A stretch of 64,000 nucleotides of DNA from an uncultured delta proteobacterium (GTDB lineage: Bacteria; Myxococcota_A; UBA9160; SMWR01): contig CAWHTE010000011.1 of assembly GCA_963832165.1 (NCBI GenBank), forward strand, positions 448,001 through 512,000, in the 5' to 3' direction. This document shows positions 48,025 through 62,182 of this stretch, piece after piece (the stretch's first letter is position 1; the number at the start of each line of letters is the position of its first letter). The notes under the pieces are model-generated. The model saw only the letters and a list, made by a program, of their open reading frames with translations, was not told the origin of the DNA and ran no database searches. Made by a program: the position numbers and the translations under genes.

Positions 48025-48501
48025 TCATCCCTGCACGGCCACGCGCTGGACCCGGCGCGGCCCGGGTGCGCGCTGGAGCGGCCCCGCATCCGCGGGGCGC
48101 GGGTCGACGCGCTCGCGCGGTGCGCGCACACCGAGCTCCCAGAGCACCTCGCGCAGGCCCAGGAAGGCGCGCAATACCGGGCGCGCGTCGTCGTCGCTCT
48201 TCGCGCGCTGCTCCCACCGCTCGATCTCCAGCTCGAGCGCGTGCGCGATCTCGGACGCGAGCCGGTCGGAGAGTCCGCCCTCGGTGGTCCAGCCGCGGCT
48301 CGCGCGACCGACCCAGCGATCGATCGATGCGAACAGCGAATTCTCCGCCGCAGACGCGCCCGACGTCGCGAGCGACGCCGCGTCGAGCAGCGCGCGCAGC
48401 GCCTCGAGCGCTTCGGCCACGGCATTCTTCGCGTGGCGGCGCGCGCGCGCGAGCGCTTCGTCGAGTGCGGCGCGATCGGAACCGTCTTCAGCCACGCCCA
48501 C
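48025..48501 (-). CDS. Hypothetical helical protein
   Basis: GTG start with GGAGG-like RBS overlapping the end of the upstream ATPase; co-oriented within the operon. Confidence 0.7.
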   Translation of the reverse strand: MGVAEDGSDRAALDEALARARRHAKNAVAEALEALRALLDAASLATSGASAAENSLFASIDRWVGRASRGWTTEGGLSDRLASEIAHALELEIERWEQRAKSDDDARPVLRAFLGLREVLWELGVRAPRERVDPRPADAGPLQRAPGPRRVQRVAVQG

Positions 48502-49717
48502 CTCCTCGCTTCGCGCTCACGGGCATCGCCTGCTGTTTCTCATCGCGCGCGGCCGGCGCCTGTGAGAGCGCCGTCGCGACCTTCTGGAGTCCCGTGAGAT
48601 CGTGCACGTCGCCGAGCAGCTCGGGCACCGCGCGGAAGAAGCTGCCGCGCCGCTCCGCGTGCTCGCGCAACGCGTCCAGCGCGGTCGCGTCGCGCCGGAC
48701 GAGCGCAGCGTACCGCGCCGCCGCCTCGATCGCTGCGCGCGCCGCCCGCACCGCGGGAAAATTCGCATCCCCTTGCTCCGCGAGAGCGCGCGCGAGCCGT
48801 GCTGTGTCGGGAGATTCGGGGTCGAGCGCACCCGGAGCCGGTCCGTCGTCGGGCCACGCGCGCACGCGATTCGCGACGATGCCGGCCACGGACACGTTGC
48901 TCGCCTCGAGTCGCGCGAGGAATCGCTGCGCCGATTTCACGGATTCGCTCTCGGGGCTCGCCACGAGCACGAACGCGGACTCCGGCCCGAGCAAGAGCGA
49001 CCTCACCTCCTTCGCGCGCGCCTGGAACCCCTCCGACATGTGCTCGAAGGCCATCAGGAATTCAGAGACGTCCTGGAGGAAGCCGATCCCGCTGATGCGC
49101 TCGATCAGCCCGAGCGCGCGGCGCGTGCCCCACTCGAACCAGCGCGCGCCGAGGCGCCCCGCGACCATCGCGGGATGGATCAGCATCTTCACGAGTCGGC
49201 TGTCGAGGAACTCGAGCAGCCGCTCGGGCGCGTCGAGGAAATCGAGCGCGTGCTGCGCGGGCGGCGTGTCGACCACGAGCGTGTCGTAGGCGTCGGAGCG
49301 CGACAGCTCGTAGACCTTCTCCATCGCCGAGTACTCGACGCTGCCCGCGAGCGCATCGGAGACGTGGCGGTAGATCGGATTGTGCAGCACGCGCTCGCGC
49401 GCGGCTGGGCTCTCGGCGAAGCGCGCCACGAGGTCGTCGAACGTGCTCTTCATGTCGAGCATCAGCGCCGAGAGCGAGCCCTCGGGCGGCACGCCGAGCG
49501 CGGCCAGCGTTTCGCGCGGCAGCGGCTCGGGCTGATTGCCCAGCGTCTCCACGCCGAGCGCGTCGGCGAGCCGGCGCGCCGGGTCGATCGTGATCACGAG
49601 CGCGCGGCGACCCGCGCGCGCCGCCTCGAGCGCGATCGCCGCGGCCACCGTGGTCTTGCCCACGCCGCCGCAGCCGACGCATACCACCACGCGGCGCTCG
49701 AGTGCGGGCAGCGTCAC
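48488..49717 (-). CDS. ArsA/Get3-family ATPase, subunit B
   Basis: VCVGCGGVGKTT, TIDPARRLADALG, EYSAMEK, VVDTPPAQHALDFLDAP. Confidence 0.92.
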   Translation of the reverse strand: MTLPALERRVVVCVGCGGVGKTTVAAAIALEAARAGRRALVITIDPARRLADALGVETLGNQPEPLPRETLAALGVPPEGSLSALMLDMKSTFDDLVARFAESPAARERVLHNPIYRHVSDALAGSVEYSAMEKVYELSRSDAYDTLVVDTPPAQHALDFLDAPERLLEFLDSRLVKMLIHPAMVAGRLGARWFEWGTRRALGLIERISGIGFLQDVSEFLMAFEHMSEGFQARAKEVRSLLLGPESAFVLVASPESESVKSAQRFLARLEASNVSVAGIVANRVRAWPDDGPAPGALDPESPDTARLARALAEQGDANFPAVRAARAAIEAAARYAALVRRDATALDALREHAERRGSFFRAVPELLGDVHDLTGLQKVATALSQAPAARDEKQQAMPVSAKRGGGRG

Positions 49718-50689
49718 GCGGCCGACCCGAGCGCGGCGTAGAGCGGCGCGGCGAGCAGCGCGGCGTCGTCGGGGCCGCGCAGTCCGTCGCGCAGGTAGGG
49801 AAGCGGCACGGTCGGCAGACCCGTCTCGCGCGCGATCTGCGCGACGTAGTGGCGATTCAGCTCCGCGCGCGCGCGGAGTGCGCTGCCGCACGCTGCGAGC
49901 ACGCGCGTGGAGGGCAGCTCGCCGAGCGCGAGGTCGTCCGGGCAGCGCCGCGAGGCGCTGATCGAGGTCGGCGAGATCGTCGGGGTAGGGCGGCTCGTGC
50001 ACCGCGTTCACCACGACGCGCTCGATCGCAACGCCGAGCTCGTTCTTCGCGCGCGCGACGAGCTCGACGGTCTCGCGCGCGGGCAGCTCCTCGGCGATCG
50101 CCACGGGCAGCAGGAGCGTGCGCTTGCGGTCCTCGATCAGTGCTTCCACGCGCTCGGTGTGATGGCGCAGCGGACCCGCGCGCACCGCCGAGACCACGAC
50201 GCGCGGCACGTCGAGGAACGTGAGGCTGTGTCCCGTGGCGGGCGCGTCGACGATGATCAGGTCGAAGCGCGGCCGGGCGCCGTCGCGCATCTGCTCGAGG
50301 TGCCAGACCTTCCCGAGCGTGATCAGCTCGCGCCAGCCCGGCGACGCGAGCAGGAGCTGGCGGAAGCCGCGCTGCCGCAGCACCGGATCGACCAGGCGCC
50401 GCGTGCCGATCTGGAGACCGAGGTACTCGCCGAGCGCCTCGAAAGGCTCGATGTGGGTGATCCAGACGTTCTCGCGCGCGAGGACGGGCTGGTAGCGGAG
50501 CGGGCCGGGTCGCGCCGAGAGGAGCCCCGCGAGCCGCGCGTCGGGGTCCACCGCCGCCACGAGCACCCGCTTCCCCCGGGCGGCGGCGCCGAGCGCCAGC
50601 GCCGCCGCGATCGTCGTCTTCCCCGTCCCCCCCTTGCCGGTGACGATGACCAGCCGGCGGTGGTCGAGCGGGCTGGCGGGGTGGGTCAA
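49714..50689 (-). CDS. ArsA/Get3-family ATPase, subunit A; frameshift near 49940
   Basis: VTGKGGTGKTT, PGWRELITLGK, IIVDAPATGH, EELPARET; C-terminus lies in ORF 49714..49902. Confidence 0.9.
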
Positions 50690-50762
50690 GCTCGCTTCTC
50701 CGAGCCTCAAGCGGGCAAGCAGCGGCTCCGAAACGTGTGGTTGGAATGGGGGAAACGGTAGC

Positions 50763-51899
50763 GTGATCGTCGTCTGCGAGCGCTGCAGCACCGAGTTCCA
50801 TCTCGACGATGCGCGTGTGCCCGAAACCGGTGCGCGCGTGCGCTGCTCGCGCTGCAAGCACGCGTTCTTCGTCACGCGGCCCGCGAGCACGCCCGAGGAG
50901 GAGATCGACCGCGCGGCGAGCCTCGCGCTCGAGGACGACCCCACGCCCGGCGTCACCGAGGACCTGCCCGACGAGCCGGTTCCGGCGCAGATGGACGCGG
51001 GCGACGACCTCGTCGACGACCTGGACGCCGGCGGGCTTCTCGGCGAGGAGCTGGACGAGGATCCGGTCACTGGGCGCGGGGAGGACTCCGAGAGCGATTG
51101 GGAGTTCAACGGGGACCTGCCCGCGGAGGGCGACGAGTCCTCGCCGGACCTGCACGGAACGCACGCGCCGCCGATGAACGCGCCGCACCGGAAGACGGAT
51201 CGGTTCGGAGACGAGGATTCTGACGGGAGCCTCGATCTCGCGGACGACGAGCCGGCGGCGCCGCCCGCGCGCGAGCCCGACAGCCCCGTCGACTGGGATT
51301 TCCTCGACCGCGGCGCGGAGCGCGCCGCGCCGGTCGCCGCCGCACCGTCGGGGCGCGTCATCACGGTGGAGCCGGATCAACCGCGCGAGATCGCGAGCGA
51401 GTCGCAGCACCCGACCGGCGCAGCACCGCTGGCCCTGCGCCGTGTCGCAGTCGGCGCCGGATGGCTCGCGACTGCCGGCCTGTGCGCGATCGCGTTCTGG
51501 TACGGGCTCGCGCCCGCGGCGCCCGCCGCGACGTCGTGGCCGAATCCCGCACCGGGGATCGCGATCGAGCAGGTGCGCGGGCGCTGGCTCGACAACCTCT
51601 CGGTGGGTCGACTCTATGTGGTGTCGGGCCGCGTACACAACGTCGCACCCACGGCCGCCTCGCTCCCGCCGCTCGTGCTCGAGCTGCGCGACGCCGCGGG
51701 ACAGCCGGTCGGCAGCCCGATCCCCGTGCGCGGGTCGAGCTTCCCGGGGAACCTGCGCACCGCGAGCGCGGCCGAGCTCGCCGCGGCGGGCGCCGATGTA
51801 CCGGGCGGACTCGCGCCCGGCGTCACGTGGGATTTCGAAGTGGTCGCGTGGCCGCTGCCGGACCACGCGGCGCGTTTCGCGATCCGCGCGGGGTCGTAG
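50763..51899 (+). CDS. MJ0042-type zinc-ribbon / acidic linker / TM / DUF3426-like protein (ZitP/AgmX-like)
   Basis: MIVVCERCSTEF..GARVRCSRCKHAF, long D/E-rich linker, one TM, VVSGRVHN..LELRDAAG Ig-like domain. Confidence 0.85.
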   Translation: MIVVCERCSTEFHLDDARVPETGARVRCSRCKHAFFVTRPASTPEEEIDRAASLALEDDPTPGVTEDLPDEPVPAQMDAGDDLVDDLDAGGLLGEELDEDPVTGRGEDSESDWEFNGDLPAEGDESSPDLHGTHAPPMNAPHRKTDRFGDEDSDGSLDLADDEPAAPPAREPDSPVDWDFLDRGAERAAPVAAAPSGRVITVEPDQPREIASESQHPTGAAPLALRRVAVGAGWLATAGLCAIAFWYGLAPAAPAATSWPNPAPGIAIEQVRGRWLDNLSVGRLYVVSGRVHNVAPTAASLPPLVLELRDAAGQPVGSPIPVRGSSFPGNLRTASAAELAAAGADVPGGLAPGVTWDFEVVAWPLPDHAARFAIRAGS

Positions 51900-51906
51900 G
51901 AGCGGG

Positions 51907-52107
51907 CTACGAGGAGCGCGGCGGCTTGCCGTCGCCGACCTCTTCCTTCGGCGTGACGTCGAGCTCGTCCTTGCCGGAGATTCCGGCCTTGAAATTCCGG
52001 ATCGCCTTGCCGACGCCCGCGCCGAGCTCGGGCAGGCGACGCGCGCCGAACAGCACCACGACGATCCCGAGAACGATCAGCAGCTCGGTCGTGCCGATTC
52101 CGAACAT
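51907..52107 (-). CDS. tatA: Twin-arginine translocase TatA/E
   Basis: [37 protein letters not shown]. Confidence 0.96.
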
Positions 52108-53985: not shown

Positions 53986-54564
53986 CTAACGGGAGAGCAG
54001 CACCTTGCGGACGCGGTAGAGGTTCGACTTCACCGCGTCCACGCTCTTGTCGAGGAGCACGGCCACCTCGGCGATCGGCCGGTGCTCGAGGTGATGGAGT
54101 CGGAAGAGCTGGCGCTGCTCCGGCGTCAGATCGTGCTCCGCGGCGGACTCGAGCTGATCGATCCGCTCGCGCAGCTCGTAGTAATCGAGCGGCGTGGTGT
54201 CCTGGATCGCCGCGTCGGGGACGGTCTCGAGCTCGCCGCTCTCGTCGGTCTGGAGCGGCACCGTCGGGTGCTGCTTCTTCTTGAAGCGCCCCGAGATCGT
54301 GTGGCGCGCCACGCCGAGCACCCACGCCGCGAACGGCGCCTCGGCCCGGAATGACCCGAGCGAGGTGAACACGTTCACGAACACTTCCTGGGTGGTCTCC
54401 TCGACGTCGGCGCGGTTGTGCAGCCGGGTCTCGACGAAGCGATACACGCGGCCCACGTAACGCCCATAGAGCAGGTCGAAGGCGTCTTTCTCGCCGGACC
54501 GGACGCGCAAGACCAGCTGCTCATCGCTCACATGACGCGCGGGGGAACACGTCGGTGCCGACAT
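53986..54564 (-). CDS. ECF RNA polymerase sigma factor
   Basis: SDEQLV..G..DAFDLLY, DVEETTQEVF, FAAWVLGVAR, region 4 IAEVAVLL..VKSNLYR. Confidence 0.93.
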   Translation of the reverse strand: MSAPTCSPARHVSDEQLVLRVRSGEKDAFDLLYGRYVGRVYRFVETRLHNRADVEETTQEVFVNVFTSLGSFRAEAPFAAWVLGVARHTISGRFKKKQHPTVPLQTDESGELETVPDAAIQDTTPLDYYELRERIDQLESAAEHDLTPEQRQLFRLHHLEHRPIAEVAVLLDKSVDAVKSNLYRVRKVLLSR

Positions 54565-54726
54565 CCCGGACCTCCCAGTGGGCCCCGGGGCTTTCGGCCG
54601 CCTTCCCCCCGGTAGGCGGTCACTCCGGTGCCTGAGAGGGTAGTGGGATCGGCAACTACAATGGTGTTGAAAATTCTTTGGGCGAGCGGAATTCCCCGGA
54701 GGAAACCCGGGGTTGGAGCCGCGGGC

Positions 54727-55293
54727 TCAGAACCGCTCGCGCTCCTCGAACTCGGCGCGCTCCTCGGGAGTGAGATCGAGGTCGGCTGCCGACAGACCCG
54801 AGCGGAAGCCCGCCGCACCCGCGCCGTCGGCCGGATCGGCGCCATCGCCGATCGCCTCGATCAAGGGCGCGACTCCGCTGCCGTTTTCGACGAAGCGCAG
54901 CGCGGCGAGCCGGAGCCCGGGCGCGCCGGCGGCGCGCGCGGCGGCGATCGCGGCGGGCCGGAACTGGGAAGCGAGCAGCACGACCATCACCTCCGCGCCG
55001 GGCCGTAGGCCCGAATCGGGTGCGAGCTGTGCCCAATCGGCCACGCGTGCCGCCACCCAAGCGCGCTGCGCGAGGCCCTCGGCGACGAGCTCGAGGTCGC
55101 CGCCGGGACGGCCGACGAGCGCGATCACGCAGCGCCCCTCGCCGTCGCGGCCCACCCAGTCGATCCGCGTGTCGGCGCCGAGCACGTTCTCTGCGAGCGG
55201 ACGCCAGCCCGGCACGAGCGCGCCGAGCGCATCGCGCAGCGCGCGTCGCCGCTCGTCGGGCGGCGGCGTTCCCGCGATGCGTACCTCAGCCAA
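54727..55293 (-). CDS. Hypothetical protein, probable degenerate PD-(D/E)XK (NucS-like) fold
   Basis: RIDWVGRDGEGRCVIAL..DLELVAEGLAQRAWV..VMVVLLASQF follows the NucS-C pattern without the ExK motif; start overlaps the upstream stop. Confidence 0.65.
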   Translation of the reverse strand: MAEVRIAGTPPPDERRRALRDALGALVPGWRPLAENVLGADTRIDWVGRDGEGRCVIALVGRPGGDLELVAEGLAQRAWVAARVADWAQLAPDSGLRPGAEVMVVLLASQFRPAAIAAARAAGAPGLRLAALRFVENGSGVAPLIEAIGDGADPADGAGAAGFRSGLSAADLDLTPEERAEFEERERF

Positions 55294-56071
55294 GGGTCAG
55301 CTTCTGGGCGTCGCTCCAGAGCATCTGCGCGACGTCGCCGAGCGCGCGCGCGGCTCTCGACTGGGGATGTTCGATCCCGATCGGACGGCGCGCCGCGATC
55401 GCGCGATACACGTGCAGGTCGTCGGCGAGCAGCCCGTAGCTCTGCGGCGCGCGGCCCAGGTGGCGCGACGCCACGCGTGCCACGTGCGCGTACGCGCGCT
55501 CGGCCTCGCGCAGCCGGCGCACGCCGTGGATCACGAGGCCGACCAGCGGGTCCGAGCTGCGCCGATAGGCGAGCTTCGCGAGCGCATACGCCTCGCGCAG
55601 GTCGTTCAGCTCGGGTGTGCCGAACAGCAGCATCCAGCGCAGGAGCGGGCGCACCGCCGCGCCGCGCACGAGCCACTCGGGCGGCACGCACACGACCACG
55701 GCGCCGCCCTCGGCGGCGTCCGCGGCTCCCGCGATCGCGGCGTCGAGCGCCGCGTGACCCAGCGCCACGAGGTCGCCCGCTTCGGGATACGACACCTGGG
55801 CGCCGAGCGGACCGCGTCCGGGCTCGGGCCACAGCGCCGCGGCTCCGGGATCGCGCGGCGCAATCATCACCGCGCGCGCGCCGAGCCGCGCGAGCTCGAC
55901 GGTGAGATTCCACGCGAACGCAGCGCGCACCACGTCGCGGCTCGCCACGGGCAGCGTGAGGATCGGCAGCGCGATGGGCATCGGGCCCGTCTCGCGCGGG
56001 CGATCGAAGCGCTCGGAGCGCTCCGCGACTGGAAGGAAATAGTGCAGGACGTCGTCGAGATCGCGCGGCAA
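55286..56071 (-). CDS. Degenerate MinD/FlhG-like protein lacking Walker A
   Basis: WNLTVELARLG, TPELNDLREAYALAK, DLHVYRAIAARRP...PQSRAARAL are FlhG/MinD-like; the P-loop position reads PVASRDVVRA. Confidence 0.75.
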   Translation of the reverse strand: MPRDLDDVLHYFLPVAERSERFDRPRETGPMPIALPILTLPVASRDVVRAAFAWNLTVELARLGARAVMIAPRDPGAAALWPEPGRGPLGAQVSYPEAGDLVALGHAALDAAIAGAADAAEGGAVVVCVPPEWLVRGAAVRPLLRWMLLFGTPELNDLREAYALAKLAYRRSSDPLVGLVIHGVRRLREAERAYAHVARVASRHLGRAPQSYGLLADDLHVYRAIAARRPIGIEHPQSRAARALGDVAQMLWSDAQKLTLG

Positions 56072-56089
56072 GTGGAGCTCTTCAGCGCA

Positions 56090-57166
56090 TCAGCGCACTA
56101 CGAGAACGGAATTACGGCCGCCGACCTGACTCGCGACGCCTTCCGGATTATCCGGGTCCTCGCGCCATTCACCGTCGACAACATAGCGATATTGATAACG
56201 ACCCGGAGCGAGGTGAAGGATCTTGGTCCAGATCCGCGTCTCGCCTTCGGCCTCGATCAGCGATCGCACGCCCTTGTCGGGCACCCAGCCGTTGAAGTCC
56301 CCGGCGATCCGGACGTCGCTCGCGCGCTCGTCGCGGAATCGCACGACCACCTCGCGCGGCGGGGAGAGATCGGGGGCGATCACGTCGCGCACCGCGTCGG
56401 GTGCGCTCGCGGCCACCTCGATCGCGAGCGCCGCGTAGTCGTGGGCACCGTTCGCGCTGCGCGCCACGGCGTTGATCGGCTTCCCGCGACTCGCCGCTTC
56501 GCGCAGCTTCACGTTCTGGCGGATCACGGTGTCGAAGCACATGTCCTTGAACATCTCGCGGATCTCGCCGAGTGTCTGGCGCGCGTAGCGCGTGCGTCCG
56601 TCGTAGAGCGTGGGCAGGATCCGCACGGTGAGCTCCTGGCCGATCCGCTCCGTGAGCAGCGCGATCGTCTCGAGCAGCTTCTGCACGCCGTGGATCGCGA
56701 AGAAGCTGGTCTCGAGCGGGACGATCACCTCGCGCGCTGCCCGCAGCGCGTTGAACGTGAGCAGCCCGACGTTGGGCGCGCAGTCGATCAGCGCGAAGTC
56801 GTAGCGGTCGCCGAGCGTCGCGAGCGCCTGCGTGAGGCGCGCGGTGCGGTTCTCGACCGGCTCGGCCGCGAGCTTCTGCTCGAGCGCCGAGAGCACGATG
56901 CCCGACGGCGCCACGTCGAGCCGCTCGCCGACCGACACGCACACGCGCGCGAGCCGGCTCGGGCCGTCGGGATCTGCGAACACCTCGTAGAGGTTCTCGT
57001 CGAGGCGGTCGGGGTCGGCGCCGAGCGCGAGCGTGGCGTGTGCCTGGGGATCGAGGTCGACCACGAGCACGCGATGGCCATCCGCGGCGAGTGCACCGGC
57101 GAGATTGACCGTGGTGGTGGTCTTCCCGCAGCCTCCCTTCTGATTCACGATCGCGATCACGCGCAT
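56090..57166 (-). CDS. ParA/Soj ATPase fused to a C-terminal CBM48 (AMPK-beta-type glycogen-binding) domain
   Basis: NQKGGCGKTTT, VDLDPQAHAT, IDCAP, TLYDGRT, IRQNVKLREA; C-terminal AGDFNGW..LAPGRYQYRYVVDGEWREDPDN..GGRNSVL. Confidence 0.93.
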   Translation of the reverse strand: MRVIAIVNQKGGCGKTTTTVNLAGALAADGHRVLVVDLDPQAHATLALGADPDRLDENLYEVFADPDGPSRLARVCVSVGERLDVAPSGIVLSALEQKLAAEPVENRTARLTQALATLGDRYDFALIDCAPNVGLLTFNALRAAREVIVPLETSFFAIHGVQKLLETIALLTERIGQELTVRILPTLYDGRTRYARQTLGEIREMFKDMCFDTVIRQNVKLREAASRGKPINAVARSANGAHDYAALAIEVAASAPDAVRDVIAPDLSPPREVVVRFRDERASDVRIAGDFNGWVPDKGVRSLIEAEGETRIWTKILHLAPGRYQYRYVVDGEWREDPDNPEGVASQVGGRNSVLVVR

Positions 57167-57234
57167 CCGCCGCTCTCCCCCTTGGTTTCCGCGCTCGGTG
57201 CTCGCGAGGCGGCCGCGCTGGATGCGGGCCGGCC

Positions 57235-57286
57235 CGGAGTCGGGCTACGGAGTGCCGGCGAGGCGGTCCGGAGTCGGACTCCGGAC
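57235..57286. promoter_or_regulatory. 21-bp palindrome plus CGGAGT repeats between merR and parA
   Basis: GTCCGGAGTC-G-GACTCCGGAC at 57266-57286; CGGAGT at 57235, 57248 and 57269. Confidence 0.45.
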
Positions 57287-57299
57287 GGGGGCAGTCGTT

Positions 57300-57767
57300 T
57301 CAGGTCAGCCGGTCGTTGGTCCCGGCCGCGGCCGCGGGTGTGCGCGGGCTGCCATCGACGACGCGCTCGGCCCGGAATGCGTCGACCTCGCGCTGTAGCT
57401 GCGCGATCTCGAACACCCATTCCTGACCGGACACGGCGTCGAAGGCGGTGCCGTCCTTGAAGGCCAGCACCACGTCGCCCGTCGCCACCAGCACGACCTC
57501 GGCCAGCGGACGCTCGACCGCGGGCAGGATCTCTCTCAGTGCACGGATCGACTTCCGAATCCGTTGGACCGAGACGCCGGCATCAATCAGTCTTTTCGCA
57601 GTCTTGAGGGCCACCAAATCCTCGAACGCATAACGCGCGTGGCCCCCGGGAGTCCGAGCACCGGGCGGGACCAGATCGGTCTCGTCCCAATATTGGAGCT
57701 GGCGGCGCGAGATCCCGATGATCTTCGCGACGTCACCCACGCGATACAGATCGCGGGTAGCTCTCAT
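57300..57767 (-). CDS. MerR-family HTH regulator (Rv1830/McdR-like subfamily)
   Basis: YRVGDVAKIIGISRRQLQYWDETDLV.P..RYAFEDLVALKTAKRLIDAGVSVQRIR; no metal-binding Cys. Confidence 0.9.
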   Translation of the reverse strand: MRATRDLYRVGDVAKIIGISRRQLQYWDETDLVPPGARTPGGHARYAFEDLVALKTAKRLIDAGVSVQRIRKSIRALREILPAVERPLAEVVLVATGDVVLAFKDGTAFDAVSGQEWVFEIAQLQREVDAFRAERVVDGSPRTPAAAAGTNDRLT

Positions 57768-57955
57768 GTCCGTGGCAGACCCCCCAGTCCACTGGACATT
57801 AGATGGAAAAAAACGCAGGGACGGACCGAAAGTAAGCCGGACCGGGTGCTCGAGTCAACCCAATAAGGGAGTCGAATTGTCTGGATCGGGGGTCGGCCCC
57901 CGTTCCACAGCAAAAGCCCGGCGAAGGACGGGTGAAGGGGATAGGTTTCGGCGAG

Positions 57956-59212
57956 ATGAGCAAGCCCGAACCGATCGCGCCAGCGGGCGCTCCGGAGGAC
58001 GAGCCCGAGCCGGTGGCCGAGCCCGCCCCGGAGGCCGAAGCCGCGCCCGCCGCGGAGGAACGCGACCGCCGGCTCTGGGTCGATGACGGTGGCGTCCGCC
58101 GACCGTTCATGCGCGGGATCATGATCCACTCTCTGATGGCCCGGGGGTTGCCGTTCGAGGAGGCGAACCGCGTCGCGAACACCGTGCGCGACCGGCTGCG
58201 CCCGCGCGGGCTGGTCGACAAGCCCGCGATCCTCGAGGCGCTCCGCGAGCTGCTCGACGCGAGCCTGTTCGAGGCCGAGAGCCGCCTGCCGATCGCCCCG
58301 GAGATCACGGTGAAGGGGGCGCGCCGGCGCGGCCAGCCGTTCTCGAAGGGCGTGCTCTCGCAGTCGCTGCTCGCGGCCGCGATCGACCCGAACGATTCGT
58401 TCGAGGTGGCGCGCGACATCGAGCGCGAGCTGCTCCGGCGCGGGCTCACCGAGATCGACCGGCGCGAGCTGCGCCGGATCACGCACGCCACGATCGAGCG
58501 GCGGCTCGGGCCCCGCTCCGCGCGCCGCTATCTGGTGTGGCGCCACCGCGCGTCCGTTCAACGCCCTGTGATCCTGCTGCTCGGCGGCGCGGCCGGTGTC
58601 GGCAAGACCACGCTCGCGCTCGAGGTCGCGCACCGGCTCGGGATCGGCCGCGTGCTCTCGACCGATTCGATCCGCCAGATCATGCGCCTGATGCTCTCGC
58701 AGGATCTCGTCCCGGCGATCCACGGATCCTCGTACAACGCCTACACCCACTTTCCGCCCGGCGCGCTCGGCGACGATCCGCTGCTCGAGGGCTTCCGCGC
58801 CCAGGCGGCGACCGTCGCGGTGGGCGTGCGCGCGTCGATCGAGCGCGCGATCGACGAGAACGCGAGCACGGTGATCGACGGCGTCGCGCTGTTCCCGGGC
58901 GCGTTCGACCTCGCGCTCTACAGCGAACGCGCCGATGTGATCTTCCTCGTGGTCGCGGCGCTCGACCGCGACTCGTGGGCCGCGCGCTTCTCCTCGCGCG
59001 AAGCGGGCGAGAGCCAGCGCCCCGCGCACGAGTATCTCGCCAACCTCGACAACATCCTGCGCATCCAGGATCAATTCCTCGAGGCCGCGGAGCGCCACGG
59101 CATCCCGATCGTCGTGAACGACCGCCTCGACCGCGCCGTGCTGCTCGTGATCCGACACCTGACCGAGTCGCTCGGCAAGCGGCCCGACTTCGACGCGCGC
59201 GCGCTGCTGTAA
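57956..59212 (+). CDS. 2-phosphoglycerate kinase-like protein with tandem ATP-cone domains
   Basis: PFMRGIM and PFSKGVL cone repeats, RYLVWR, LLGGAAGVGKTTLALEVAHRLGI..LSTDSIRQIMR, HGSSY, NILRIQD. Confidence 0.85.
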   Translation: MSKPEPIAPAGAPEDEPEPVAEPAPEAEAAPAAEERDRRLWVDDGGVRRPFMRGIMIHSLMARGLPFEEANRVANTVRDRLRPRGLVDKPAILEALRELLDASLFEAESRLPIAPEITVKGARRRGQPFSKGVLSQSLLAAAIDPNDSFEVARDIERELLRRGLTEIDRRELRRITHATIERRLGPRSARRYLVWRHRASVQRPVILLLGGAAGVGKTTLALEVAHRLGIGRVLSTDSIRQIMRLMLSQDLVPAIHGSSYNAYTHFPPGALGDDPLLEGFRAQAATVAVGVRASIERAIDENASTVIDGVALFPGAFDLALYSERADVIFLVVAALDRDSWAARFSSREAGESQRPAHEYLANLDNILRIQDQFLEAAERHGIPIVVNDRLDRAVLLVIRHLTESLGKRPDFDARALL

Positions 59213-59272
59213 TCCTCCGCGGCTGCACTCGCCGGCTGTATAGTGGGACTACCTCGTGCGCAGGAGTTCCCG

Positions 59273-60682
59273 ATGCCCACTCCGCCGGATCCGACCACGC
59301 TGGGAGCGCTCCGGGCTTCGGGCTATCGCGCTCGCACGGTGCGCGAGGAGCTGCGCGTGAACCTGCTCGCGAAGATGGCGAGCGGCGCGCCCGTGTTCAC
59401 GGGCGTGATCGGCTACGAGGAGACGGTGGTGCCTGCGGTCGAGAACGCGCTCTTGTGCGGTCACGACCTGATCTTCCTCGGCGAGCGCGGTCAGGCGAAG
59501 ACGCGCATGATCCGCCAGCTGACCGGACTGCTCGACGAATGGGTGCCCGAGGTCGCGGGCAGCGAGATTCACGACGACCCGACCGCGCCCGTGTCGGCGT
59601 ACGCGCGCGCGCTCGTCGCCGAGCGCGGCGACGCGACGCCGGTCACGTGGGTGCACCGCGACGACCGCTACGTCGAGAAGCTCGCGACGCCCGACGTGTC
59701 GGTCGCCGATCTGATCGGCGACGTCGACCCGATCAAGGTCGCGCAGGGCCGTTCGCTCTCCGACGAGCTGACGATGCACTTCGGACTCGTGCCGCGCACG
59801 CACCGCGGGATCTTCTGCATCAACGAGCTGCCCGACCTCACCGAGAAGGTGCAGGTCGGCCTGTTCAACGTCATGGAAGAGCGCGACGTGCAGGTGAAGG
59901 GCTACCGGATCCGCCTGTCGATCGACGTGCTCGTCGTTGCGAGCGCCAACCCCGAGGACTACACGAGCCGCGGTCGCATCATCACGCCGCTCAAGGACCG
60001 CTATGCGGCCCAGGTGCGCACGCACTACCCGCGCACGCCCGAGCTCGAGCTCGAGATCGTGCGCCAGGAGGCCGAGCCGCCGCGCGCCGACGGTGTCGTG
60101 GTGGTGGTGCCGCGCTTCATGGAGGACGTGATCGCGGAGCTCACGTTCCAGGCGCGCTCGAGCCCGGACGTGAACCAGGCGTCGGGCGTGTCGGTGCGAC
60201 TCTCGATCGCGAACTACGAGACGCTCGCGGCCAACGCGCTGCGCCGCGCGCTGCGACTCCGCGAGTCGGCCGCGGTGCCGCGCATCTCGGATCTCGACGC
60301 GCTCGACACCAGCACGCTCGGCAAGATCGAGCTCGAGTACGCGGGCGGCGAGCGCAGCGAGGGCGACGTGGTGCGCGAGCTGCGCAAGCGCGCGTGCAAG
60401 CGCGTGTTCGACCGCATCGTGAGCGCGGAGGCGGCCGCCGAGGTGGCGCGCGCGTTCGACGACGGCTGGAAGGTGGAGGTGTCGGCGCAGATGCCGTCGC
60501 GCGAGTACCTCGCGGGCCTCGACCAGATCGCGTCGCTGCGCGAGGCGGCGGCGAAGCTCGCCGGCTCCGAGGAACCTGCCGCGATCGCCTCCGCGATCGA
60601 GTTCCTGCTCGAGGGGCTCCATCTGTCGAACAAGCTCAACAAGACCGAGCGCGAACACGGCGCGCGCTACGCGCGCTCGTGA
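59273..60682 (+). CDS. Mg-chelatase-subunit-I-like AAA+ ATPase
   Basis: LGERGQAKTR, EKLATPD, INELPDL, SANPEDYTSRGRIITPLKDR. Confidence 0.9.
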   Translation: MPTPPDPTTLGALRASGYRARTVREELRVNLLAKMASGAPVFTGVIGYEETVVPAVENALLCGHDLIFLGERGQAKTRMIRQLTGLLDEWVPEVAGSEIHDDPTAPVSAYARALVAERGDATPVTWVHRDDRYVEKLATPDVSVADLIGDVDPIKVAQGRSLSDELTMHFGLVPRTHRGIFCINELPDLTEKVQVGLFNVMEERDVQVKGYRIRLSIDVLVVASANPEDYTSRGRIITPLKDRYAAQVRTHYPRTPELELEIVRQEAEPPRADGVVVVVPRFMEDVIAELTFQARSSPDVNQASGVSVRLSIANYETLAANALRRALRLRESAAVPRISDLDALDTSTLGKIELEYAGGERSEGDVVRELRKRACKRVFDRIVSAEAAAEVARAFDDGWKVEVSAQMPSREYLAGLDQIASLREAAAKLAGSEEPAAIASAIEFLLEGLHLSNKLNKTEREHGARYARS

Positions 60683-62182
60683 AATCGAGCGTCTACAGCC
60701 GCTGGGACGGCAGCCAGGACGAGTTCCGTCTCGACGCCGAGCGCGCGCTCGACGCGCTCTCGAACCTGATGATGGAGGGCCTCGACGCGCGCGAGGCGCT
60801 CGAGTGGATGCGCCAGCACGGCTTCGAGCTCGCGGGCCTCGACATGCGTGTGATGGGGCTCTCGGAGCTGCTCGAGGAGATCCAGGAGCAGATCCGGCGA
60901 GGCGCGCGCCGATCTCGCGCGGCGCTTCGAGGAATTGCTCGACCGCGAGCAGGAGCGCCTGCGCGAGAACCACGGCTTCGAGTCGGAGCGCATGAACGAG
61001 TTCAAGCAGCGCCGGCACGCCGACGCGAAGGGCCTCGCCGAGGCGATCGCGCAGTTCTCCGACTATCGCTTCGAAGACGAGGACGCCGCGCGTGCCTATC
61101 GCGAGCTGCTCGAGATGCTCGAGCGCATGCGCGCGATGGAGCAGCTGGCGCGCGACATCGCCGAAGGGAACCTCCAGGAGATCTCACTCGACCAGCTGCG
61201 CGAGATGCTCGGCGAGGACGCGATGCGGTCGCTGATCTTGATCCGCGACCTCGAGTCGACGCTCGAGCGCGCGGGCTATCTGCGCGGCGGAGATCCGCAG
61301 CTCACGCCGCGCGCGATCCGCCGGATCGGCGCGCACGCGCTCGCCGAGGTGTACGCGGCGCTGCGCCGCGACCGGCCCGGCGCACACGAGACCGACGCGC
61401 GCGGCGCCGCCTTGCCGCGACCCGACGAAGTGAAGCCGTTCGAGTTCGGCGATCCGCTCGACCTCGACGTCGTGCGCACGCTGATCGATGCCGTGAAGCG
61501 CAACGCGCGAGCGGCGCCCGGGCGGCCCATCCCTCTGCCGGTACCGCTCGAGGTCGAGGACTTCGCGCTGCGCGAGCGCGACTACAACACCCAGACCACC
61601 ACCGTGCTCCTGCTCGACATGAGCTGGTCGATGTCGTGGGCCGGCCGCTTCCCGGCCGCGAAGCGCGTGGCGCTCGCACTCGATCACCTCGTGCGCACGC
61701 GCTTTCCGCGAGATCATTTCTTCGTGGTCGGTTTCTCGACGCGAGCGCGAGAGCTCTCGCCGAGCGAGCTGCCCGAAGTCTCGTGGGACATGGGCGACCC
61801 GTTCACCAATCTGCAGGAAGGGCTCATGATCGCGGAGCGGCTGTTCGCGAAGCACCCGTCGGCGAGCCCGCAGGTGCTCGTGGTGACGGACGGGCAGCCC
61901 ACTGCCTACTACGCCGGCAAAGAGCTGCATGTCGAGTGGCCGATGGGCTTTGGCGGCGTGTCGCCGCACGCGGTGGCCGAGACGATGAAGCAGGTGCGGC
62001 GCATCACGCGTCAGGGCGTGACGATCAATACCTTCATGCTCGACGACTCGCCGGAGCTGGTCGGATTCGTGGAGCGCATGACGCAGGTCAACCGCGGACG
62101 CGCGTTCTTCACGAGCCCCGAGGCGCTCGGCTCGTTCCTGATGGTCGATTATCTGCGCGGGAGCCGGAAGCGCCGGCGCTGA
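60679..62182 (+). CDS. VWA (MIDAS) domain partner protein; frameshift near 60900
   Basis: N-terminal YSRWDGSQ (GTG overlaps the ATPase stop), LTPRAIRRIG, FGDPLDLD, DMSWSM, TNLQEG, VTDGQPT. Confidence 0.88.

Follow-up and report, generated by a model that had tools for sequence, protein, structure and literature searches.

A ParA ATPase fused to a CBM48 domain, and its pseudo-enzyme partner opening with a ParB-like peptide, in an uncultured order of Myxococcota

ParA/MinD ATPases give spatial order to chromosomes, plasmids, carboxysomes and chemoreceptor arrays, and we know of none that has been found experimentally to act on carbohydrate. Here we describe a ParA joined to a carbohydrate-binding module (CBM) of the CBM48 type, encoded in a 64,000-nucleotide (nt) stretch of DNA, the window, from an uncultured delta proteobacterium (GTDB lineage Bacteria; Myxococcota_A; UBA9160; SMWR01; assembly GCA_963832165.1, contig CAWHTE010000011.1, positions 448,001 to 512,000 of the forward strand). 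Four co-oriented open reading frames (ORFs) on the minus strand, within positions 54727-57767 of the window, encode a MerR-family protein, the fusion protein ParA::CBM48 and two further proteins, ORF3 and ORF4. Judged by its sequence, ParA::CBM48 keeps every ATPase motif together with a carbohydrate site of the AMPK-beta type, and ORF3 and ORF4, both catalytically degenerate, form by the same token one functional unit that always opens with a ParB-like peptide of the LGRGL type. The reading that we favour, with a probability of roughly 0.45, is that of a vertically inherited housekeeping module in which a ParA and its partner tether or position a glycan ligand of the invariant CBM site; the original prediction for this locus was of a system that positions glycogen granules.

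The ParA-CBM family is large and spans many phyla: relatives of ParA::CBM48 number in the thousands, and the best 120 listed (71-92% identity) all carry PF16561 and are named, where a name is given, only as 'chromosome partitioning protein' or 'AAA family ATPase'. In the literature on ParA with CBM48, AMPK1_CBM or glycogen granules, the only relevant paper found is a 2026 preprint by Li, Burroughs and Aravind (bioRxiv 10.64898/2026.10.19.760177), which describes ParA-CBM as a 'CBM-containing system' of clade ConB5; in its variant 2, ParA::AMPK1_CBM is accompanied by a second ParA and a restriction endonuclease, both inactive, a gene set identical to ParA::CBM48, ORF3 and ORF4. The earlier statement that no system of this kind had been characterised accordingly holds as far as experiments are concerned, but the architecture itself was already in print, with immunity proposed as its role. 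Our analysis supports and strengthens the ParA-plus-partner logic, by way of the ParB-like peptide and of natural fusions between ORF3 and ORF4; the main text of the preprint has no occurrence of 'MerR', and section 29, its one section on this system, contains neither the peptide nor the fusion.

The N-terminal region of the fusion is an intact ParA, as had been predicted. Pfam matches it to AAA_31 (3.8e-49, residues 1-180) and CbiA (6.4e-26), its closest solved structures are ParA 8ray (4.8e-46) followed by Soj 6iub and Soj 1wcv, and none of 40 aligned family members departs from it at K10-G-G-C-G-K-T16, D37, D39 or D128, so that all keep the signature Lys and Walker A loop, the Walker A' Asp residues and the Walker B Asp. 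The Walker A sequence reads KGGCGKT, with the Cys at residue 13 invariant in 40/40, and that of the canonical ParA of the same genome reads KGGVGKT; this Cys may serve as a signature of the family and is possibly redox-sensitive. Because the canonical parA-parB pair sits on a separate contig (C7), ParA::CBM48 is an extra, orphan ParA with dedicated partners, again in line with the original prediction. A study of HpSoj assigns non-specific DNA binding to a patch formed by K199, K227, K230 and K247 (PMC6393308); these positions align to R196, Q217, K220 and S237 of the fusion, two of the four being basic, with R216 and R236 adjacent, and nucleoid binding by ParA::CBM48 is plausible on this alignment.

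The C-terminal region, correctly identified at the outset as CBM48, matches AMPK1_CBM (PF16561) at 9.5e-11 over residues 275-354, with 42.2 bits versus a gathering cut-off of 26.8, and residues 262-358 align with the CBMs of AMPK beta-2 and beta-1 (4y0g, 8e-9; 1z0n), LSF1 and SEX4. W294, W313, W334 and G349 are invariant among 40 members from at least five phyla, which also share R/K327 in 40/40 and N352 in 36/40 cases. The sugar site of AMPK beta, which we take to consist of two Trp platforms, a Lys and an Asn, aligns with W294, W334, R327 and N352. Within the family of this organism the CBM is present in 21/21 genomes, its Trp/Trp/Arg/Trp positions are intact in 20/20 loci read and residue 352 is an Asn in 17/20. 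Like the CBM48 domains of AMPK beta, SEX4 and LSF1, the module has Trp, Lys/Arg, Trp and Asn at the aligned positions; unlike them, it has a bacterial ParA as fusion partner and is found in genomes devoid of alpha-glucan enzymes.

For comparison of whole loci, contigs representing one genome per species were used; 579 stretches of these encode a relative of ParA::CBM48 and 80 were kept (L001-L080), comprising 21 Myxococcota-type loci from metagenome-assembled genomes (L001-L021, 57-90% identity) and 59 distant loci (34-47%) from Planctomycetota, Omnitrophota, Rokubacteria, Eisenbacteria, Desulfobacterales and other groups. Plain tblastn finds the block PGK2-MerR-ParA-ORF3-ORF4-ECF-AXE-DsbA in synteny in the Myxococcota loci, with matches to ORF3 in 19, ORF4 in 16, MerR in 15 and PGK2 in 19 of the 21, some of the misses falling at contig ends; outside this clade it detects ORF3/ORF4 in none of the loci except L063. 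Profiles of both proteins, taken through three rounds of iteration against every ORF in the 80 loci, place an ORF3-like gene directly after ParA-CBM in 21/21 clade loci (in L016 as a weak remnant, 2.2e-5) and 21/59 others, and an ORF4-like gene in 17/21 and 13/59, respectively. Conservation of the neighbourhood thus extends across phyla for a core of three genes; MerR is confined to the Myxococcota clade.

ORF3 matches no Pfam family, and NCBIfam gives just a hint of MinD at 0.005. A Foldseek search with its predicted structure (30-row alignment; predicted local distance difference test score, pLDDT, 86.7; predicted template-modelling score, pTM, 0.83) returns FlhG 4rz3 first (E 4.8e-12, template-modelling score, TM, 0.66), followed by FleN, MinD 1hyq and Soj. 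Like FlhG, FleN and MinD (E 5e-12 to 4e-10, TM 0.60-0.67), the protein has an N-terminal helix followed by a flexible linker; unlike them, it lacks a Walker A loop in this clade and is not an ATPase, the corresponding position reading PVASRDVVRA, without a functional P-loop. The 'dead MinD' recognised in the original prediction is borne out in this form and, since GK[ST] loops persist in the distant orthologues from L063, L065 and L030 (which match Pfam CbiA at ~5e-8), the Myxococcota protein is a decayed ATPase.

The N-terminus of ORF3 reads MPRDLDDVLHYFLP in this genome and (K/R)LGRGLxDVSHxFLS in other phyla (alignment A1); L5 is invariant in the alignment, L13 nearly so, and R3 matches the Arg of LGRGL in the distant orthologues. 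The N-terminus of the genome's own ParB contains a similar element (...ALGRGIGALIP). In the structure of HpParA, DNA and HpParB(1-10), Leu7 and Arg9 of MAKNKVLGRG make conserved contacts, and the HpParB substitution R9A abolishes ParA binding (PMC11229316). A degenerate pattern of the ORF3 peptide has 33 matches in 965,619 amino acids (all stop-to-stop ORFs of the 80 loci), of which 32 open the gene that directly follows ParA-CBM and lie 9-527 nt beyond its stop codon, in 32/80 loci; a stricter pattern matched just 6/59 distant loci. From this resemblance we infer that the peptide may stimulate ParA::CBM48. Co-folding of two copies of ParA(1-262) with ATP, Mg and ORF3 gave a score of 0.00, which bears neither way on binding.

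ORF4 has no match in Pfam or NCBIfam. Its model (pLDDT 89.4) retrieves NucS 2vld and EndoMS 5gke (E 5e-5; TM modest, ~0.4) and then SfsA, and one of its homologues has been named 'RecB family endonuclease NucS' by JGI. D45, D66 and W79 are nearly invariant, and the position of the E-x-K motif is occupied by A-L-V (consensus V-L-V); the dead nuclease fold first suspected here is thereby substantiated, D45 being kept and E-x-K lost. While sharing the PD-(D/E)xK fold of the C-terminal nuclease domain of NucS/EndoMS, ORF4 differs from these proteins in lacking both E-x-K and the NucS N-terminal domain, and in having a conserved acidic C-terminal tail. The tail, with the consensus FR(T/S)GLSxADLxLTxEExxEFE (alignment A2), recurs in distant orthologues such as that of L040, and a helix is modelled at residues 176-187 (pLDDT ~85); the CBM or ParA are candidates for its partner.

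A single ORF of 480-540 amino acids in L033, L041, L058 and L074 is ORF3-like in its first half and ORF4-like in its second, such fused partners being found in Planctomycetota, and the peptide is attached directly to the nuclease fold in loci of Rokubacteria (L076, L077) and Desulfobacterales (L022, L032), where the MinD-like part is missing. Neither ORF3 nor ORF4 has a ParB match in Pfam or NCBIfam; ParB shares with them just the N-terminal LGRG-like peptide. As in chromosomal ParABS, a deviant Walker A ParA is accompanied by a partner that starts with an LGRG-type peptide; unlike in ParABS, this partner has no ParB domain, being made of a pseudo-MinD and a pseudo-nuclease, and the ParA bears a CBM. 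The degenerate neighbours had been cast as activator or scaffold, and the ParB-like docking motif now added to the partner fits a role as activator or adaptor.

How the module might work can be outlined as follows. ATP-bound dimers of ParA::CBM48 would bind to DNA and grip a glycan-bearing ligand with the CBM, while the ORF3/ORF4 unit would take the place of ParB: the N-terminal peptide of ORF3 would dock on the ParA dimer and lead to ATP hydrolysis and release, and the catalytically dead nuclease fold of ORF4 would possibly anchor the unit to DNA. The outcome of such a cycle would be a ligand that is tethered or distributed, much as other cargos are by ParA systems. McdAB, PomXYZ and ParC/PpfA, to which we liken the module, also pair an orphan ParA with a partner that is dedicated to it and evolves fast; there, however, it is the cargo that bears the adaptor, and the ATPase is without a domain for cargo binding, whereas here the ligand-binding domain is fused to the ATPase. 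If true, this arrangement would amount to an 'inverted' ParABS, with the cargo adaptor on the ATPase and the activator on DNA. Its more specific form, a core ParA machine that links the nucleoid to a cytoplasmic glycan or another ligand of the CBM48 site in the absence of alpha-glucan metabolism, with a ParB substitute made of two pseudo-enzymes and similar to ParB in the docking peptide only, is a tentative proposal with the odds against it. Both the mimicry of the ParB docking peptide and the invariant sugar site are directly testable with purified proteins.

Several observations weigh against the favoured tethering or positioning module. We infer the binding of sugar, the binding of DNA and the stimulation of the ATPase alike; marker searches offer no candidate ligand in a genome without alpha-glucan genes, and a basic residue stands at only two of the four HpSoj DNA-patch positions. 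Some relatives have lost partners (ORF4 in L017 and L019, both in L016), 27/59 distant loci have no partner signature of any sort (ORF3-like, ORF4-like or peptide) by these profiles, and some have a neighbour with a P_proprotein domain in place of the partner. Moreover, the profiles were built from the very loci that they searched, a small set, and the weakest matches may therefore be drift. Finally, the sole published opinion, that of the preprint, assigns the ParA-CBM system to immunity.

The ParB-like peptide on the partner also raises the idea of a second DNA-segregation system, in which the dead nuclease fold would be a sequence-specific centromere binder replacing ParB and the CBM would do no more than modulate or anchor ParA. 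The NucS and EndoMS folds bind DNA, and the Rokubacteria partner, reduced to peptide and nuclease fold, would suit such a role. We nevertheless consider it very improbable: the module is chromosomal, a complete canonical ParAB is encoded elsewhere in the genome, no repeated candidate centromere was seen, although none was searched for, and the invariant residues of the sugar site would be left unexplained.

The original prediction of glycogen as the cargo is not supported. In its scheme, the CBM48 would grip alpha-glucan granules that ParA spreads over the nucleoid, and the domain does align, with its key Trp, Lys/Arg and Asn kept, with CBMs that bind glycogen or starch, those of AMPK beta, SEX4 and LSF1. 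The genome, however (5.54 Mb in 11 contigs, 89.4% complete), has no match to glgB (TIGR01515), GH13 (PF00128), glycogen phosphorylase (GT35, PF00343) or GH57 (PF03065), and no credible glgA or glgC, the best scores being 54 bits versus a cut-off of 328 and 25 bits versus 425. A weak match to PF08323 was rejected as glycogen synthase, as it belongs to a GT4 enzyme and lies below the GT5 cut-off.

The comparison was extended to 151 genomes of the class, all of them metagenome-assembled, mutually related and a sample, with GT35, glgB and glgC searched in the present genome only. ORF3 at E 1e-15 or better defined 96 carriers, leaving 55 non-carriers; seven genomes with weak or partial matches (G010, G027, G038, G055, G096, G141 and G148) were dropped from the carriers. 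GH13 is rarer in carriers (50/96 versus 39/55) and GT5 no commoner (any match in 26/96 versus 16/55, and a strong one in 20/96 carriers), and genomes without GH13, GT5 and strong GH57 make up 42/96 carriers versus 16/55 non-carriers; in 30/96 carriers even weak GH57-like matches are lacking in addition to GH13 and GT5. The Trp/Trp/Arg/Trp positions of the CBM are equally intact in all seven genomes of this organism's family that have no glycogen markers. Genome and class marker searches thus find carriers without glycogen synthesis, an outcome that the original prediction had itself listed as refuting the granule cargo, and because this genome and many of its relatives have no recognisable glycogen genes, a role in glycogen granules is doubtful. 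The GT5 matches in 26/96 carriers and a GH57 gene adjoining ParA-CBM in 3/52 scanned distant loci (L039, L043 and L080) speak for the idea, and divergent alpha-glucan enzymes may have escaped the marker searches; on balance we regard granule positioning as improbable, and classical glycogen is unlikely to be what the CBM binds in this organism. The central puzzle is that a glycogen-type site is strictly conserved in lineages without a recognisable alpha-glucan enzyme.

In several relatives a strong GH57 gene has a weak GT5-like gene (55-68 bits) as its immediate neighbour, a pair not found in this genome (G068:C11:37691-39758, G112:C246:28226-30324, G033:C54:219627-221688, G075:C19:3400-5485 and others); it looks like a compact alpha-glucan pair of the archaeal type.

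The distribution of the module bears on the immune role put forward in section 29 of the preprint (10.64898/2026.10.19.760177), which bases an immune sensor on 'rapid divergence of the CBM' and on sporadic distribution. In this anti-phage or anti-plasmid scheme, the lectin domain would sense an infection-linked carbohydrate, ParA would multimerise and so restrict the invader, and the dead nuclease would sense DNA. Pseudo-enzymes often act as sensors, the system has a scattered distribution among phyla, and a MoxR-like AAA and VWA pair lies 1.5 kb from the locus. Within the order, the picture is different. ORF3 was matched in 103/151 class genomes; the counts for five of the order's families are 19/19 (f1, that of this organism), 9/10 (f3), 47/48 (f4), 4/4 (f6) and 8/8 (f10) genomes, compared with 11/23 and 0/3 genomes in two more families and 2/32 in the other order. 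The module, with a single full-length ORF3 per genome, is therefore near-universal and in synteny with housekeeping genes in this uncultured order of Myxococcota, of which ParA-CBM is a core gene, and such near-universal vertical inheritance argues against immunity. Defence systems are patchy in their distribution.

Nor does the CBM diverge rapidly in these data. Mean pairwise identity among 40 sequences is 48.7% for the CBM versus 52.3% for the ATPase domain, and 41.9% versus 45.6% for pairs with less than 50% identity in the ParA domain (mostly between phyla); the similarity of these values implies that, in this sample, the CBM is not fast-evolving. The partners diverge about as much as the flanking genes, median identities to the window's proteins over 13 loci being 46% for ORF3 and 39% for ORF4, compared with 41% for AXE, 40% for DsbA, 52% for the ECF sigma factor and 51.5% for PGK2. 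No effector is encoded at the locus, PADLOC yields no specific defence match, just generic ones to helix-turn-helix (HTH; mad1) and P-loop regions (PDC-M28B, limited to residues 5-39), and no effector, mobile or defence genes were seen among the neighbours of this locus or of the distant loci scanned (52/59, the other seven having no callable ParA ORF), the latter neighbours being mostly housekeeping genes such as dnaN, ftsK, rnpA, fusA, purL and lpxK. Where the preprint has a rapidly diverging CBM and a sporadic system, we thus find a CBM that evolves like the ATPase domain and a module that is core to an order; the immune reading fits this clade poorly, and we give it a low probability. In their simple forms, granule positioning and immunity are both weakened by these data.

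The MerR protein matches MerR_1 (2e-17, residues 8-76) and MerR (2.2e-11) in Pfam, and only HTH matches below cut-off, to CarH, HspR, TnrA and RacA, in NCBIfam; as all of these equivalog matches are far below their cut-offs, no MerR subfamily can be assigned. An orthologue lies upstream of ParA in 15/21 Myxococcota-type loci and 0/59 others, from which it follows that the core works without MerR, most likely a regulator added in this lineage. A RacA-like DNA anchor was considered and set aside, the RacA match (8e-5) being far below cut-off and the gene clade-specific.

With MerR adjacent, ParA::CBM48 and ORF3/ORF4 could instead form a carbohydrate- or energy-state switch that controls transcription or the cell cycle, in the manner of the AMPK CBM or of FleN-FleQ. 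The AMPK-beta type of the CBM is consistent with this, as are the best structural matches of ORF3, FlhG and FleN, which regulate partner proteins. Yet the absence of MerR from all 59 loci outside the clade argues against such a switch, which has no known DNA target or regulon, and docking peptides of the ParB kind typify partition-type cycles; we therefore rate it as unlikely. In the MerR-ParA spacer, the stem of a perfect palindrome recurs in L001 and L003 with differing loops and, for that reason, is more suggestive of an RNA hairpin than of an operator.

Coordinates of the locus, its sequence features and selected neighbours (positions in the window)
Feature	Position	Strand	Description
MerR	57300-57767	-	155 aa, MerR-family HTH
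Perfect palindrome	57266-57286		10+10 nt, GTCCGGAGTC g GACTCCGGAC; in 133-nt MerR-ParA spacer
ParA::CBM48	56090-57166	-	358 aa fusion protein
ParA ATPase domain	56402-57166	-	residues 1-255 of fusion; AAA_31, CbiA
CBM48/AMPK1_CBM domain	56093-56344	-	residues 275-358 of fusion; PF16561
ORF3	55286-56071	-	261 aa, pseudo-MinD/FlhG fold, P-loop absent
ORF3 N-terminal peptide	56030-56071	-	MPRDLDDVLHYFLP, residues 1-14; ParB-N-terminus-like motif
ORF4	54727-55293	-	188 aa, NucS/PD-(D/E)xK fold, E-x-K motif absent
ORF4 acidic C-terminal tail motif	54745-54807	-	FRSGLSAADLDLTPEERAEFE, residues 163-183; after variable linker
2-phosphoglycerate-kinase-like (PGK2)	57932-59212	+	with ATP-cone; divergent from MerR
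MoxR-like AAA_5 ATPase, then VWA protein	59243-62182	+	479 aa and 415 aa
Tandem ArsA/Get3-like ATPase, with zinc-ribbon/DUF3426 protein and TatA	48488-52107		ATPase with two P-loops

The layout agrees with the original prediction, including its coordinates and the tight coupling of the last three genes: the gap between MerR and ParA measures 133 nt and that between ParA and ORF3 18 nt, and ORF3 and ORF4 overlap by 8 nt. The G+C content of the region is ~0.70-0.76, and scans of 54500-58000 for sigma-70 promoters and intrinsic terminators found nothing. Among sequencing runs, none of RNA was listed as containing this DNA, and the DNA runs that contain it do so with small shares (0.12 or less). 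As also predicted, no parB, chemoreceptor or microcompartment genes are present among the ORFs scanned, which cover 48.5-62.2 kb of the window.

On one side the locus is flanked by genes for an ECF sigma factor, an AXE1-like esterase, a DsbA-like protein, TatA, a zinc-ribbon/DUF3426 protein and a tandem ArsA-like ATPase, and on the other by those for the 2-phosphoglycerate-kinase-like, MoxR-like AAA and VWA proteins. The tandem ATPase (ArsA_ATPase 3.5e-53), adjoined by the zinc-ribbon/DUF3426 protein and TatA, is listed as a frame of 958 amino acids that probably begins too early. The 2-phosphoglycerate-kinase-like protein matches NCBIfam PRK04220 at 1.5e-84, below cut-off, and its gene is syntenic in 19/21 Myxococcota-type loci.

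Individual loci depart from this layout in different ways. In L016, ~630 nt with weak ORF3 remnants separate ParA-CBM from the ECF sigma gene (L016:7075-7705), and L017 (L017:7961-8227) and L019 are clade members without ORF4. The next gene in the Phycisphaerae- or Pirellulales-type loci L029, L038, L051, L064, L066 and L073 encodes a protein of 200-240 amino acids with a P_proprotein (proprotein convertase P) domain, replacing ORF3/ORF4. Directly upstream of ParA-CBM, L068 (5408-5914) and L072 (497-1018) have a bifunctional-nuclease-domain (BFN_dom) gene preceded by a PilZ gene, and L063 and L065 a gene for a flavin reductase.

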